Below the pieces are notes generated by a model, which was given only the letters and a program-made list of their open reading frames with translations, ran no database searches and had not been told where the DNA came from. From Enterobacter phage vB_ExiM_F4M1E, in the sequence record OL744216.1: 64,000 bases of DNA. One strand, written 5' to 3'. Both the position numbers and the translations under genes were made by a program. The stretch's first letter is position 1. Every line of letters starts with the position of its first letter. Positions 48,098-61,835 of the stretch are shown here, piece by piece.

Positions 48098-48127
48098 TAT
48101 TTGTGAGCTAAGGACGGCTCAGATTTC

Positions 48128-48290
48128 AGATCGGTTTTCGATTTGATATTTTCGCCTGATATTTGCGTAGATATTTGAAATCAGATTTCAATTCGAAATT
48201 CAATTTGAGATTTGATTTGGGATGGGGCTGCTGACCGGAACCCAGATCTGATTTCTTTTTCAGATTTACTGACCAGTGTATCAAACCGTC
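48128..48290. repeat. AT-rich degenerate short repeats (AGATTTCA / GATTTGA / GATATTT) - candidate DNA-unwinding element
   Basis: more than 10 copies of GATTT-based words in 160 bp, no ORF. Confidence 0.4.
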
Positions 48291-48402
48291 TGACCTGTGG
48301 TCAATACCTAATGCATCATAAATGTTACATTAAGGGACTTATGCACCACTAATGGTACATATATGTTACAATGCTGGAGTTATCCTCTATCAGAAAATTT
48401 GA

Positions 48403-48582
48403 GGGTCTCGATCGACTTTTCACTTTGCCAATCGTATTCTCTGCCCGGCGGGCGGGGCCGGAGTCTCGGTACAAAAACCGGGGTCTCGATCGGTTTTTCG
48501 ATTTCCAGATCGTATTCTCGATACAGGTACAGGTCTCGCGCCGGGGTCTCGATCGAAAATTCATTTTCGAAAACGTATTCTC
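48403..48582. repeat. iteron array: 3-4 units of GGGTCTCGATCG ... CGTATTCTC
   Basis: GGGTCTCGATCG at 48403, 48481, 48545 (variants 48460, 48531); CGTATTCTC at 48433, 48511, 48574. Confidence 0.5.
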
Positions 48583-48618
48583 AAAATCTATACAGAGGTT
48601 CAAATCGAAATGCAAATC

Positions 48619-48720
48619 GTTATCATTCTCACCTCTACCGGGTCGGAGTGAGAATCGTTCTCATTTGCAAATGCAACTAATAATCATTCGCATTCAGCTT
48701 GTTGAATGATAATCATTTTC
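48619..48720. promoter_or_regulatory. cluster of ATTCTCAT-core operator-like boxes including an exact Fur-box core
   Basis: TTGAATGATAATCATTTTC (48702-48720) contains AATGATAATCATT, the central 13-mer of the Fur consensus; also GAGAATCGTTCTCATT and ATAATCATTCGCAT. Confidence 0.4.
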
Positions 48721-48758
48721 ATCTCCAGAATAGCGGGCAGGTCCGGTGATTGTCTCCG

Positions 48759-48786
48759 GGTCAATTCTCCCCGCTATGTGTATAAT
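48759..48786 (+). promoter_or_regulatory. candidate promoter (GGTCAA-N-TGTGTATAAT) with no ORF downstream
   Basis: consensus TATAAT preceded by TGTG; -35 weak. Confidence 0.3.
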
Positions 48787-48792
48787 ATAACC

Positions 48793-48995
48793 CAAGCCCG
48801 GCCCGGTTGCAAGCGTCTTTACAGTTCTTTACAAAACTATTTTAGGCGAACTACCGGCGATCCACCTTCCGACCTGGCCCCGGTGCCCGGTACGTTAGCC
48901 CCGCCTTTTCGCCGTGGGGTGGCGTCTCCTCTCCTGTATGTGTACATTATGCACCAGGCCCGGCGGGCCGTCAATACAAAAATCAAAATAAATTT
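48793..48995 (+). ncRNA. candidate non-coding RNA between orphan promoter and GGCCCGgcGGGCC hairpin + A/T-rich end
   Basis: 200 nt GC-rich structured segment without ORF, bounded by promoter-like and terminator-like elements. Confidence 0.2.
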
Positions 48996-48998
48996 TTC

Positions 48999-49027
48999 TT
49001 GACCTGCCAGGCAAGCCGGGCCACAAT
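48999..49027 (+). promoter_or_regulatory. promoter of array gene 1: TTGACC-N17-CACAAT
   Basis: spacer contains GGCAAGCCGGGCC. Confidence 0.45.
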
Positions 49028-49057
49028 GCAGGCACACCAACAAAAGGAGATCGACCC

Positions 49058-49390
49058 ATGCAACAGACGAAATATTTTATTGAAGGAACAGCCGCCGCCC
49101 ACGCCGGGCAGATCCGCGCCTGCCGCTACAATAAAGAAGAGAACCGCCGCGAATGGTTCGCCGGGTTCGATAGTGTGGATCGTGGTTTCGCCGTGTTTAA
49201 GATCCTCCCTGGCCCCGGCGCTGTTAAGCTGGCTGACCTGGACCCCGTTTATATTGGTGGCGTTAAACAATGCCAGGATCGCGCCGTTACCCTGCAACAG
49301 ACAGACCGCGCCGGGCGCTATGTCATTTATGATATGGCAACGGGCAAGCCGTACCAGGAAAGCACAAAATTAAATTACAAAAATATTTAA
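49058..49390 (+). CDS. array gene 1, hypothetical (110 aa)
   Basis: AAAAGGAGA RBS; GC-rich codons. Confidence 0.55.
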   Translation: MQQTKYFIEGTAAAHAGQIRACRYNKEENRREWFAGFDSVDRGFAVFKILPGPGAVKLADLDPVYIGGVKQCQDRAVTLQQTDRAGRYVIYDMATGKPYQESTKLNYKNI

Positions 49391-49417
49391 AATAATGCTT
49401 GACGGGGCCGACGATAG
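49389..49417 (+). promoter_or_regulatory. family promoter TTGACG-GGGCCgacgataGGCCC-CATAAT
   Basis: 17-nt spacer with GGGGCC/GGCCCC inverted repeat; CACATAGCGACGCAC motif follows. Confidence 0.6.
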
Positions 49418-49479
49418 GCCCCATAATTCACCACATAGCGACGCACACCGCGCCGCACTAACAAAGAGAGACCGTCATC

Positions 49480-49917
49480 ATGTTACATTCAATCAATAAA
49501 GAGCAAAAACTGTACGTCCTGAAGTGTGGCAACGGCTTTACCTGCTATGGGTTCGAAGTGCTGGACACAAACGCCCGCAAGGTTAAGCAGTGGTTAGAAT
49601 CTGAAGGTGCAACAGTTGAGGATCTGCCATATCGCAAGGGCACAAAGAAGCATTATAAAGCCTGTCAAGATATGATCGCCGCTGGTTGTGCTTATCATGC
49701 CAGAACGGGCAAACGCTGCCTTGCTGGACTCACCAAACAATTAAAGGGCCTGGAGGGTCGCCGGGTAGAAGTGATCACAATGTACGGCGAAAAGCGCCGC
49801 TTTATTGTGGGTCGCTCTACTGGCTGGATGCCTGCCCACCTGGAGATCGCCCGCGCTAACAGTAGCGGCGGCATGAGTGCAGAGCAGCAATATAAATCTG
49901 TAACCATCGTAAAATAA
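49480..49917 (+). CDS. array gene 2, hypothetical (145 aa, Cys-containing)
   Basis: CA-rich leader CTAACAAAGAGAGACCGTCATC-ATG. Confidence 0.55.
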   Translation: MLHSINKEQKLYVLKCGNGFTCYGFEVLDTNARKVKQWLESEGATVEDLPYRKGTKKHYKACQDMIAAGCAYHARTGKRCLAGLTKQLKGLEGRRVEVITMYGEKRRFIVGRSTGWMPAHLEIARANSSGGMSAEQQYKSVTIVK

Positions 49918-49930
49918 TTTAAAAAGAGTA

Positions 49931-49959
49931 TTGACACCGGGGCCACCTGGCCCCATAAT
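49931..49959 (+). promoter_or_regulatory. family promoter TTGACA-ccGGGGCCAccTGGCCCC-ATAAT
   Basis: consensus -35/-10, palindromic spacer; GCCCGGCAAA direct repeat follows. Confidence 0.6.
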
Positions 49960-50007
49960 ACAAACAAGCCCGGCAAATGGTGCCCGGCAAAATCAGAGAG
50001 TAAAGAA

Positions 50008-50230
50008 AATGGCTAAAGTAACCTATAAAAAATCACGTGGCGTCTCCTCTGTTAACCTGGCGGCGGTTGTAACCCTGCCCGCATACCGTACCCGTGACGA
50101 GGCGCGCGCCGTTGCCAGTAAGATCCGCGCCGCTGGCGTGACTCCGACAACGCCAACCAAAACGGCGGACGGCTGGCGCGTTACCGCAAAGCATAACGGC
50201 GGCACACTTTCCCGCAACACTCACCGCTAA
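50008..50230 (+). CDS. array gene 3, hypothetical (73 aa, start MAKVTYKK)
   Basis: AGAGAGTAAAGAAA RBS. Confidence 0.5.
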
Positions 50231-50239
50231 CCAATTGCA

Positions 50240-50262
50240 GGCCCCGCCGGGGGCCTTTTGTG
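50240..50262 (+). terminator. terminator-like hairpin GGCCCC-gccg-GGGGCC + TTTTGTGT
   Basis: same palindrome as promoter spacers, here followed by a T-run. Confidence 0.45.
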
Positions 50263-50275
50263 TGGAGTCAGTACC

Positions 50276-50620
50276 ATGACCAAACAGATCTACCATGTAC
50301 CGATCACGCCGCTTTTCCGTTGTCATATCTTTTATGACTGTAATGATCTTGCGGGGCAATGGATCGGCGATACCGATCAACAATATGATTTCCCGGAATG
50401 GGACGAACTAAACCGCCGTGTAAGCAACGCCGCACACAATGCCGATCCTGATAGCCTGGCGGACGTGGAACACTTCCCCGGCGGGGCCGCTTGCTTTCCT
50501 TATATTGAGATCACCGCGCCAACGTGGGCGCTATGTAAAGCGATGGGCGACGCCGTGATCCGTTGCATCCTGGACAATGGCGGGATCGTCGAACCAAAAG
50601 ACAACGGAATAAATATTTAA
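50276..50620 (+). CDS. array gene 4, hypothetical (114 aa, start MTKQIYHV)
   Basis: GGAGTCAGTACC RBS. Confidence 0.5.
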   Translation: MTKQIYHVPITPLFRCHIFYDCNDLAGQWIGDTDQQYDFPEWDELNRRVSNAAHNADPDSLADVEHFPGGAACFPYIEITAPTWALCKAMGDAVIRCILDNGGIVEPKDNGINI

Positions 50621-52481: not shown

Positions 52482-52796
52482 ATGATAACTATTCTCACAA
52501 TGCTGGGACTTGCGGCGGCGGCGATTTACTGCGTCGCTACTTATAAAGCGTCTGTATGGCGAAAGGGTCAAAAAATGTACGGCTATTTTGAATATGAGTA
52601 CAAAGGGGAGAAGGGATCAAGCCGGGACTATGGCGCGATGTTAGAGATCGATATGGTTGGCGCGATGAACTACCGCCAGGAGTTGGGCGCGGTGATCACG
52701 TATGAAGTTTACAAGTCATCTGAGGATGAGATCGGGCAGATAATTGATCAACGTTACTATATGGAACAGCAACAAAACAAACGCCGGAGAAAATGA
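52482..52796 (+). CDS. array gene 10, membrane-anchored protein (104 aa)
   Basis: N-terminal TM helix ILTMLGLAAAAIYCVATY. Confidence 0.5.
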   Translation: MITILTMLGLAAAAIYCVATYKASVWRKGQKMYGYFEYEYKGEKGSSRDYGAMLEIDMVGAMNYRQELGAVITYEVYKSSEDEIGQIIDQRYYMEQQQNKRRRK

Positions 52797-53772: not shown

Positions 53773-53780
53773 AATAGTTG

Positions 53781-60275: not shown

Positions 60276-60279
60276 AGAG

Positions 60280-60308
60280 GCCCGCCACCCCGGCGGGCTT
60301 TTCTTTTG
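60280..60308 (+). terminator. rho-independent terminator ending the plus-strand block
   Basis: GCCCGCC-acccc-GGCGGGC + TTTTCTTTT. Confidence 0.7.
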
Positions 60309-60547
60309 TCCCAAACGTGGCAAGCCTGGAGGCCCGGCCCGGTATCGGTCCGACTCCCCCAGTCAATCCCCTTATCACTTCCATTTGTGGAAATCAACAC
60401 TTAATTTTATTCACTTTAAAGCGCATAATTGAATAAACGAGGAGCTAACCCACTAACCAGGGTTGAGAGTAGCGGCCCGCATAGGGCCTTACAGCGCGTT
60501 TTAGCCCCTATTGACTTCTATCTGCAAACGTGTATCAAGCCGGATCG

Positions 60548-60623
60548 GTGAATCATCCATTTTCTTTACATAACTTGACACTATTTATTCATTTATCTGC
60601 ATAATGCTAGAATGATTCTCATT
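60548..60623. promoter_or_regulatory. promoter-like TTGACA...CATAAT overlapped by ATTCTCAT/Fur-like box GAATGATTCTCATT
   Basis: TTGACA 60575, CATAAT 60596, box 60610-60623: classic repressor-over-promoter layout. Confidence 0.3.
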
Positions 60624-60672
60624 TACTATCAATAACTTAACTTTTTATTGACTTCTGACAAAACACGGTTTT

Positions 60673-60818
60673 ACGTTCCCACGGATCAAGGGAGGGCGCG
60701 CCGTAGGCGCGACCAATAGAAAACAGGTAACGGATCACCCCCTTTGCTAACTCGCAAAGGATTGTGCTCACGTTCCCACGGTCAAGGGATGACCGCTATC
60801 ACCTGTTTTCTATTGGTC
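60673..60818. repeat. composite repeat: 21-bp direct repeat ACGTTCCCACGG(A)TCAAGGGA x2, perfect 18-bp inverted repeat GACCAATAGAAAACAGGT, two internal hairpins
   Basis: DR 60673/60770; IR 60711-60728 vs 60801-60818; hairpins CCTTTGC-taactc-GCAAAGG (60741-60760) and GCGCGCC-gta-GGCGCG (60696-60711). Confidence 0.5.
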
Positions 60819-61082
60819 ATTACGTAGTAATAAAACCGCTATTGTCAAGGGCTTTTTAGTGCCTACAGGCACAAATACGAATTATTCTCATCTGCATAAA
60901 GATTGGTTTTATCTGCATAAGTACGTAAACAGGCGGACCCGTACAGCGTAGCGGGGGCCGCATAGGCCCTACCGGGCAAGGGCCTTTATTGCTCACAAAA
61001 CAGCCGAAAGCGTAGTATTTGCCTGGCAAAATTCGCTCTTCGTGTCAAGCGAAAAATAATTTTTTTTTCTTTTTGCGTAAAC

Positions 61083-61226
61083 GATAATGATTCTCATCCG
61101 AGAACCATTCTCAAAGGGCTAATGCGAATCATTCTCATTATCATGCCACAAGGTGAGTGAGACTCATTCTCATCCAGGCCAGTGCTGGCGGGCCTCTCCA
61201 CGTGTTGGGAATGATTATCATTCACG
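61083..61226. promoter_or_regulatory. dense cluster of six ATTCTCAT / Fur-like boxes
   Basis: GATAATGATTCTCATC, GAGAACCATTCTCA, AATGCGAATCATTCTCATTATCATG, GAGACTCATTCTCATC, GGAATGATTATCATTCACG (AATGATTATCATT is 12/13 to the Fur core). Confidence 0.4.
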
Positions 61227-61589
61227 TCAGTGCGTATAAGGTGTATTATGTTAAATGGGGAAATGTTGGGGGAGGCACACCACGGCCCGGCTGTCAATAA
61301 GAGAAGTGTAAAGATGGGCAAGATGGTAGACATTTTGTGACTTTGATCGCGTAAAGTTAGGGGCTACCGATCTGGATTCAAGATTGAGAGGGAGAGGCTA
61401 AGTGATTGATTATTAAGGATATTTGGGAAAAATAACAGGTGCCCCTCCCCACCCCTGTTCGCCATGCCTGGCAGCTATATCCACACACTGAGATATTTTT
61501 CTGGTTTCTGGGCAAGAAGGGCCACCCCTGATCGCGTTCTAAAAATTTTGGCGGGAGGGTATTTTGACATAAAAAGAGGGCACAGCGCC

Positions 61590-61800
61590 TTACAGGTGAG
61601 CCTCTTCAGGCGTCCCTTGATATTTGGGCAATGTGGGAATACAGACGGGTACGTCTCTGTGGGAACAGGTATACCCGGCGGGAGAGGGCCTCCCGGACGG
61701 GGTATGGCGCTCGCAGAGTTATCAACAGGTCTGCCTCTTTAGGCAGTGGGTACAAGACAGGTTAGGCTCTTCAGGTCTACCAGTGTGGGAAACAAAATTG
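61590..61800. repeat. direct repeats CTCTTCAGG...GTGGGAA(C/T)A x3-4
   Basis: 61591, 61650, 61731, 61762; GTGGGAA at 61632, 61654, 61783. Confidence 0.35.
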
Positions 61801-61810
61801 TGGAGGGAGA

Positions 61811-61835
61811 TACAAAAATACCGCCCGAAGGCGGT
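61811..61835 (-). terminator. rho-independent terminator ending the right minus-strand block
   Basis: ACCGCC-cgaa-GGCGGT stem, T-run on minus strand. Confidence 0.7.

Follow-up and report, generated by a model that had tools for sequence, protein, structure and literature searches.

A predicted dif-type Xer recombination site in a conserved non-coding region of Vequintavirinae phage genomes

Why would a virulent phage keep about 1.5 kb of its genome free of genes? The question is raised by positions 60309-61835 of the 64,000-nt window of Enterobacter phage vB_ExiM_F4M1E (OL744216.1) analyzed here, to which all coordinates refer unless another genome is named. This non-coding region lies between convergent terminators and is rich in repeats and hairpins. 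Its counterpart in phage rV5 is a 2.6-kb gene-free stretch between ORF163 and ORF164; the rV5 genome map drew a 'non-coding' box without explanation, and the skew analysis in the same study followed the direction of transcription only (PMC3606486). Among the candidates listed in an initial annotation of the sequence, site-specific recombination proves right in kind, backed by a 28-bp core resembling the chromosomal dif site. The interpretation given there is only partly supported, because this decisive element had been missed. For parts of the region, its readings as a replication origin, a packaging site or a small RNA may still hold. On balance, we consider it somewhat probable that Vequintavirinae genomes inherited the region from a common ancestor as a non-coding module acting in cis, with the 28-bp XerC/XerD dif-type site as its core.

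The E. coli dif site is GGTGCGCATAATGTATATTATGTTAAAT, i.e., GGTGCGCATAA-TGTATA-TTATGTTAAAT, and that of Pectobacterium atrosepticum is GGTTCGCATAATGTATATTATGTTAAAT (PMC2731167). The phage 28-mer shares the 11-6-11 organization of the Enterobacterales site recombined by XerC/XerD/FtsK and equals E. coli dif at 24 of 28 positions, with a XerD arm identical at all 11. When the 64-kb window was searched for the two dif arms with a free centre, one site was returned, carrying two mismatches over the 22 arm positions, against 0.00 expected by chance. Applied to 25 related loci, the same search gave a single site in every one. In rV5, both dif arms are perfect (22/22), and the complete genome of Klebsiella phage KaOmega holds a single site, at 93,297, in non-coding DNA.

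The pattern of variation within the site is equally informative. The XerD arm is invariant across all tabulated loci; the XerC arm, which matches that of dif at 9-11 of 11 positions, changes solely at positions 1 and 7, and also at position 8 in phage SSBI34. The 6-bp centre is specific to each genus (GGTGTA, CGTGTT, TAGGTA/TGGGTA, GGTATT and CGTGTA, of which TGGGTA and CGTGTA come from further IMG/VR contigs of Vequintavirinae size), and no phage centre equals the host centre TGTATA. The immediate flanks of the 28-mer vary between genera as well. According to published descriptions of Xer sites, the XerD arm is better kept than the XerC arm (PMC2731167 among the sources), and the centre of 6-8 bp is unconserved. 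The phage element shows the three sequence hallmarks of a Xer recombination site (xrs, i.e., dif, cer and psi), namely inverted arms, a variable 6-bp centre and stronger conservation of the XerD arm. Furthermore, exact copies of the arms AGTGCGTATAA and TTATGTTAAAT occur in catalogued xrs of enterobacterial plasmids (PMC11724359, supplement). Judged by these comparisons, the element is a host-type Xer site under strong purifying selection, present in single copy in a conserved non-coding module. The site family is known; what is new are its carriers, virulent tailed phages, and its companions, an inverted-repeat (IR) unit and an array resembling boxes for the regulator Fur. A full-text search of the open-access literature retrieved no paper pairing Xer terms with Vequintavirinae, Vequintavirus, Certrevirus or rV5-like, and earlier notice elsewhere is possible. 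The genome papers of rV5 and CB7 do not mention the dif-like site.

The surrounding 2.2 kb belongs to the genus Certrevirus (Vequintavirinae, rV5-like), with 84-93% identity in sequence searches to KaOmega, Enterobacter phage SS-2025, Cronobacter phages CR3, CR8, CR9 and PBES 02, and Pectobacterium phages P7_Pc, phiTE and CB7. The two block terminators recognized in the initial annotation were recovered by a terminator scan (Table 1), and the comparison of synteny foreseen there places the region at the same position in every relative examined, with an ancestral IR unit. In phiTE, the counterpart (48,910-50,378) has no genes and is bounded by annotated terminators. Carefully annotated relatives likewise show no genes in this stretch; other annotations put short hypothetical open reading frames (ORFs) there. 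Within the window, the longest ORFs of the region reach 92, 79 and 57 aa (61464-61742 on the plus strand; 61094-61333 and 60856-61029 on the minus strand). Most of 13 relatives have stops or frameshifts within these frames, and the region is therefore regarded as non-coding, in line with the earlier view that it has no credible ORF. The small genes annotated in some relatives (KaOmega gp181-183, P7_181/182) are not conserved and were rejected.

Alignment of 14 Certrevirus-type sequences gave a mosaic of near-invariant blocks and variable, indel-rich stretches. Insertions in relatives map to two places. Just after the plus-block terminator (~60306), KaOmega, PcCB7V and DU_PP_I carry a 66-aa ORF with its own terminator, and SS-2025 has a different insert of ~286 nt; at ~61715, phiTE and CB7 carry an HNH homing endonuclease (phiTE_097/CB7_143). 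The edges of the region thus tolerate insertion, whereas the core modules do not. Between genera, the region counts among the best-conserved DNA. Its best-conserved piece, 61226-61264, was found by a more sensitive search at 90-97% identity in the Mydovirus phages AV124 and KP12 and in the Henunavirus phage pEp_SNUABM_01. In each of these phages, the corresponding interval between convergent blocks is 1.3-1.8 kb long and almost devoid of genes. A syntenic non-coding region was found in Certrevirus, Vequintavirus, Mydovirus, Henunavirus, SSBI34 and an IMG/VR contig. A tblastn search toward more genera with the neighbouring gp30.7-like protein returned mostly T4-like phages.

Table 1. Features of the non-coding region and its borders (window coordinates; a dot marks features without strand).
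Feature	Position	Strand	Sequence, basis or remark
Intrinsic terminator closing the plus-strand early-gene block	60276-60302	+	11-bp stem, then T tail; kept in relatives
Promoter-like site P1	60575-60605	+	TTGACA (60575-60580)/CATAAT (60600-60605); points toward IR unit; near-invariant in Certrevirus; putative function
Fur-box-like palindromic box	60608-60626	+	TAGAATGATTCTCATTTAC; at predicted P1 start; 13-14/19 to Fur 19-mer
Direct repeat, copy 1	60673-60693	+	ACGTTCCCACGGATCAAGGGA; outside IR; invariant in 13 Certrevirus/SSBI34 sequences
GC-rich hairpin	60698-60710	.	GCGCC-GTA-GGCGC; just outside left IR arm; homologous GC-rich dyad in other genera
Left arm of 18-bp perfect inverted repeat	60711-60728	.	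Compensatory variants in phiTE/CB7 and CR9
Inner hairpin	60741-60760	.	CCTTTGC-TAACTC-GCAAAGG; 4/6 pairs changed on both sides among relatives
Direct repeat, copy 2	60770-60789	+	Inside IR
Inner hairpin	60779-60795	.	CGGTCA-AGGGA-TGACCG; perfect
Right arm of 18-bp perfect inverted repeat	60801-60818	.	Repeat scan
Box and two TCTGCATAA repeats	60879-60920	+	Repeat scan
A/T-rich tract preceded by conserved GTCAAG	61050-61082	.	Read from sequence
Array of five Fur-box-like boxes, one orientation, abutting XerC arm	61083-61225	+	Starts 61083, 61100, 61124, 61159, 61207; best Fur match 15/19
Predicted dif-type Xer recombination site	61229-61256	+	AGTGCGTATAA-GGTGTA-TTATGTTAAAT; match to dif arms
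XerC arm	61229-61239	+	AGTGCGTATAA
Central hexamer of dif-type site	61240-61245	+	GGTGTA
XerD arm	61246-61256	+	TTATGTTAAAT
ACAGGT..CTCTTCAGG repeats (three copies) and GTGGGAA (three copies)	61592-61791	+	Conserved beside minus-block terminator
Intrinsic terminator closing the minus-strand gene block	61820-61835	-	Terminator scan

What could such a site do for a lytic phage? To the observed sequence identity, conservation pattern, single copy, synteny and covariation, the mechanism proposed here adds Xer binding, a recombination outcome and a possible tie among the three modules, all of which we infer from sequence. The best reading, and one we hold to be rather likely than otherwise, is a Xer site for recombination between phage copies, e.g., for resolving genome multimers. 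Host XerC and XerD would bind the two 11-bp arms and recombine two phage copies present in one molecule, for instance in a circular dimer or a head-to-tail product of replication. The outcome would be a return to unit circles, or to a simpler topology, during early replication. In a variant, strand exchange by XerC alone would give a Holliday junction to be completed by the phage endonuclease VII or by replication. An endonuclease VII is listed in the KaOmega annotation, which lists no recombinase, and integrases have been reported absent from phiTE (PMC3475682). The Fur-box-like array beside the XerC arm may consist of sites for an accessory or regulatory protein, and the folded IR unit may act as a DNA structure or be transcribed into RNA from P1, a promoter under box control.

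The centre of the site bears on the choice of partner. It is established Xer biology that strand exchange needs matching centres and that differing centres hold replicons apart (discussed in PMC2731167). Since the phage centres are unlike that of host dif, the phage is expected to recombine with itself and not to fuse with the host chromosome. This point also bears on the view that the site is an attP of the type used by integrative mobile elements exploiting Xer (IMEX), by which the phage would enter the host dif site and persist in a hidden carrier state or one resembling lysogeny. Filamentous phages and gokushoviruses do integrate at dif, and IMEX such as CTXphi, VGJphi and TLCphi resemble the present case: a virus bears a dif-like site, encodes no recombinase and depends on host XerCD. 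The host-type arms and the many small IMG/VR viral contigs bearing dif-type sites would agree with this view. IMEX are small, however, whereas the carriers here are large tailed virulent phages with a differing centre and no integrated copies found. The Certrevirus-type site was unmatched in a set of 185,579 species represented by one genome apiece, the rV5 region was unmatched in 5,426 complete E. coli genomes, and the region was unmatched in plasmids. In addition, published accounts of the phages call them strictly lytic (PMC3475682, PMC7344957). Integration at host dif is thus very improbable.

Among the IMG/VR viral contigs, 114 dif-type sites were recorded, 42 with the host centre TGTATA and 42 with the centre CACCCA. 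The contigs that bear them are mostly 4-15 kb long and probably belong to IMEX-like small viruses. On one contig of 262 kb, an extra, inverted XerD arm comes after the dif-like site.

Several points weigh against multimer resolution. Concatemers are the substrate of packaging, and resolving them looks counter-productive late in an infection that ends in headful packaging. Known 28-bp sites without accessory sequences require FtsK at the division septum, a control that is an awkward fit and hard to picture in an infected cell. FtsK orienting polar sequences (KOPS) in the KaOmega genome number 10 toward the site and 5 away from it, a convergence that is not significant, and GC skew in KaOmega follows the direction of transcription only, as reported for rV5 (PMC3606486); neither was informative as a marker of a replication terminus, where chromosomal dif lies, or of an origin. 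No ArgR or ArcA site was found at the position known from cer and psi, about 100 bp from the core (up to three mismatches to the ARG box, up to four for ArcA). Moreover, the Fur-like boxes of rV5 sit on the XerD side of the site, which makes it less likely that the boxes serve as accessory sites of the cer kind.

Comparison with known Xer systems shows where the phage site would belong. It is single-copy per replicon and lies in non-coding DNA where gene orientation converges, like chromosomal dif, but on a virulent genome of ~145-150 kb with a centre other than TGTATA and without significant KOPS convergence. ColE1 cer and pSC101 psi offer the parallel of a Xer core on a secondary replicon, with multimer resolution as the likely role. 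Their accessory sequences occupy the XerC side, where the five Certrevirus boxes fill 150 bp, and conserved, repeated DNA of ~150-200 bp that looks like protein sites abuts the XerC arm in Certrevirus. Unlike the ~200-bp ArgR/ArcA accessory sequences, however, the phage repeats resemble Fur boxes, their side changes in rV5, and accessory sequences are a device of small plasmids, replicons far below the phage genome in size. Size is shared with the large enterobacterial plasmids such as R27, whose 28-bp, FtsK-dependent xrs reside on replicons of more than 115 kb; catalogued plasmid xrs have exactly the phage arms. Since the carrier here is a lytic phage instead of a stably inherited plasmid, segregation-linked FtsK control is not obviously applicable. 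Phage P1 provides a further parallel, as loxP is a recombination site on a large, terminally redundant and permuted phage genome, serving in dimer resolution and cyclization; P1, though, is temperate and encodes its own recombinase, Cre, whereas the enzymes acting on the virulent phages would be those of the host.

A wider proposal can be advanced only tentatively, and we would not call it probable: all Vequintavirinae (virulent Enterobacterales myoviruses of ~135-155 kb) may depend on host XerCD, with a dif-like site of their own, for a regular step in the lytic replication or maturation of the genome, together with the Fur-box-like array and the folded IR element. If true, these would be the first virulent tailed phages to exploit Xer, possibly with an iron-sensing or structural control unseen at dif, cer and psi. 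If the site is strictly conserved across every examined genus, it would define a new class of Xer client beyond chromosomes, plasmids and small integrating elements like CTXphi. It would also expose an unrecognized host dependency in phages proposed for therapy or biocontrol, including rV5, PVP-SE1, relatives of phi92, and Cronobacter, Pectobacterium and Klebsiella phages. For the 'non-coding' box of rV5, unexplained since 2013, the dif-like site is the first concrete handle, and the covarying structured element and the Fur-like box array are now defined, with functions open to probing.

The boxes form the second module. The cluster of six reported in the initial annotation is real, with five clear boxes. 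The family GAGAAT-N-ATTCTC (GAGAATNATTCTC, up to two mismatches) occurs 15 times in the window against 2.5 expected, and all but one of the 15 fall within 48.6-61.2 kb. Scored against the 19-bp Fur consensus, GATAATGATAATCATTATC, the region has 14 sites that agree at 13 or more of 19 positions, compared with 0.3 in shuffles, and the best reaches 15/19; the recurring ATTCTC half departs from the ATTATC of Fur. In KaOmega, a stricter motif (GAATNATTCTCAT, up to one mismatch) is confined almost solely to two non-coding regions ~13 kb apart, namely the present one and one upstream that equals window positions 48.1-48.8 kb. Vequintavirinae loci have 3-8 boxes each, and most unrelated dif-bearing viral contigs have none. 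A link between the boxes and Xer function is conjectural. Near 60879-60920, Pectobacterium phages carry extra copies of a ~57-nt box-containing unit: phiTE, CB7, PcCB7V and DU_PP_I have 56-57 additional nt at 60862 and 60901.

The layout of the array raises the question of whether the region is chiefly a replication origin, in which a protein would bind the oriented boxes or iterons beside the A/T tract, the IR unit or a transcript from P1 would aid priming, and the dif-like site would be secondary. Five dyad boxes in one orientation adjoin a 33-bp A/T tract, and oriented boxes beside such a tract, with a palindrome nearby, resemble the iteron-type lambda origin. The order of GTCAAG, ~35 nt of AT-rich DNA and boxes is maintained across genera, being found also in AV124 and pEp_SNUABM_01, and the same boxes recur in the second repeat-rich non-coding region at 48.1-48.8 kb. 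On the XerC side of rV5, about ten iteron-like copies of ACTGTTTACR/ACTGTTCACG lie between the IR unit and the dif-like site (NC_011041, ~105,460-105,640), a sequence that has no counterpart in Certrevirus. However, the site sits where transcription converges and not where it diverges, no origin signal appears in skew analysis (also PMC3606486), and no initiator, nor a linked initiator gene as in lambda, was identified. A lone 9-mer, ATATCCACA at 61479-61487, agrees with the DnaA-box consensus TTATCCACA in all but one of its nine positions and is kept in most Certrevirus phages, but not in phiTE or CB7. An origin would also leave the exact dif arms unexplained. Chiefly origin function therefore appears doubtful, though worth keeping in view.

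Packaging is another function that repeats could serve. The region might hold a pac site, possibly in a variant after the model of phage P1, in which pac near a recombination site would yield first-headful genomes with two copies that a host recombinase would cyclize. Direct and inverted repeats of this kind resemble the pac architecture of SPP1 and P1. Phages of this type are terminally redundant and circularly permuted (PMC3475682), which fits the idea, and several database records start or end inside the region, among them the rV5-like records MT884010, OR844766, OR062943 and OX460980. The PBES 02 record (KT353109) runs from the right IR arm round to the left one and lacks the 72-nt interior, a pattern of assembly break; the other record ends sit at different repeats. 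Record ends were accordingly rejected as physical termini and taken as assembly artefacts. With the terminase gene ~56 kb away in KaOmega, a pac site here is distinctly improbable. The rivals discussed concern different modules, and not all of them are mutually exclusive with a Xer site.

The third module, the IR unit, consists of two 18-bp arms with 72 nt between them. The perfect repeat and the two perfect hairpins inside it, as initially described, were found again with arms 100% complementary. The 21-bp direct repeat said to flank it is also real (ACGTTCCCACGG(A)TCAAGGGA), but it is not a flanking repeat, as one copy falls outside and the other inside the inverted repeat. When loci are oriented by the Xer site, every lineage shows a perfect inverted repeat of 18-21 bp on the XerC side, at a distance of 380-900 bp. 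Synteny of the unit holds across at least five Vequintavirinae lineages, and its arms are always perfectly complementary even though at least seven different arm sequences are in use (GACCAATAGAAAACAGGT, ...AAAAGGGTAA, ...AAAAGGGGTA, GACACAATAACACTAGGG, ...CGAGGG, ...CGAGAG, ...GGGAG, GACACTATAACACGAGAG, GACATAATATAAAAGCAG, GCCACCTATAAAAGCAAGTAG and CCGCCATAGTCAGTTATGGAG). For the Certrevirus unit, RNAalifold gave 50 pairs, of which nine have both partners changed. Shuffling yielded 4.3 ± 1.2 such pairs, none of 500 rounds reaching nine, and slid controls gave at most two; 98.6% of the cells of the named IR structure are paired. A Mydovirus/Seunavirus-type set added eight doubly changed pairs in a larger, multi-branched fold. 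Folding compared with shuffles gave z = -6.4 as RNA and -7.9 as DNA.

These data bear directly on a reading in which the IR unit is an insertion resembling a miniature inverted-repeat transposable element (MITE), as considered in the initial annotation, and the rest is decaying junk between terminators. Perfect 18-bp terminal-like repeats around a short interior would suit a MITE. The motifs of the unit, however, are single-copy in a complete relative genome, and single copy, synteny in all lineages and compensating changes in the stems indicate an ancestral folded element and not a mobile insertion. Nor does decay agree with the conservation of the region between genera, and the probability of this reading is close to nil.

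The element might fold as RNA or else as single-stranded or cruciform DNA. A structured non-coding RNA of ~150-250 nt might run rightward from the box-controlled P1 and be the main product of the region. The covariation, seen in four helices, and the strong folding z-scores support such an RNA. A similar -10 element and box stand ahead of the IR unit in AV124, and the genus offers a precedent in the pseudo-ToxI of phiTE, though at another locus. Yet no canonical terminator follows the unit in the terminator scan, and Rfam and tRNA scans returned no known RNA family or tRNA, only weak terminator-like matches, none on the unit. Folding energies choose no strand, the minus strand being slightly better. 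Wobble intermediates are rare in the stems (2 one-sided against 26 two-sided cells), and together with the perfect Watson-Crick pairing of all long arms this leans toward a strict-duplex or DNA-level constraint. P1 itself went uncalled in the promoter scan because its 19-nt spacer is non-canonical, which counts against the RNA as well. The TTGACA and CATAAT hexamers noticed earlier do exist; the Fur-like box then thought to overlap them abuts the promoter-like site without touching either hexamer. An RNA as the main product of the region thus seems unlikely. The pseudo-ToxI locus of phiTE was considered and rejected as an equivalent, as it lies at 106,714, far from the phiTE counterpart, and the region has no ToxI-like match. 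In some lineages (AV124 and one IMG/VR contig), a second copy of the right arm, GTGTTATTGTGTCGCT, occurs ~100 nt downstream of the first, so that the left arm could pair in two alternative ways.

Other repeats complete the picture. The CTCTTCAGG and GTGGGAA repeats near the minus-block terminator, already seen in the initial annotation, were confirmed by the repeat scan, and CTCTTCAGG often forms GCC-TCTTCA-GGC mini-hairpins. The motif CCTGAAGAG has four copies in the rV5 region (locus L025, 1867-2410) and is also found just before the plus-block terminator (60272). Motifs formerly taken for promoter fragments are present a few bases from where they had been placed (GGCCCGCATAGGGCC at 60474-60488, not 60468; GGGGCCGCATAGGCCC at 60954-60969). 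Their reading as decayed promoter cassettes is not supported: the GGCCC-GCATA-GGGCC elements are simple hairpins, unlike the Certrevirus early-promoter cassette TGTTGAC-N19-TATAAT published for CB7 (PMC7344957), which is absent from 60309-61835.

A second repeat-rich, apparently non-coding region lies inside the plus-strand early block at 48100-48800 and is a candidate origin or early control region. It comprises short GATTTC/GATATTT-type repeats (48110-48225), at least three units of GGGTCTCGATCG...CGTATTCTC (48400-48585) and four more Fur-like boxes (48618-48720). Related motifs (GGTCTCGA, GATATTT and TTCGAAAT) are found in other genera within the region that bears the dif-like site. At 52793, 57938, 59043 and 59502, several small early ORFs, or what look like ORF starts, begin with ATGAGAATGATT or ATGATAATGATT, so that a box-like sequence overlaps the start codon; these may be chance matches, because the stricter box motif loses them. 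On the plus strand between 51256 and 56587, early-promoter cassettes match the CB7 consensus, and a GC-rich hairpin, CCGGGCACCGTCCCGG, occupies the cassette spacer at 53779, 54502 and 54753.

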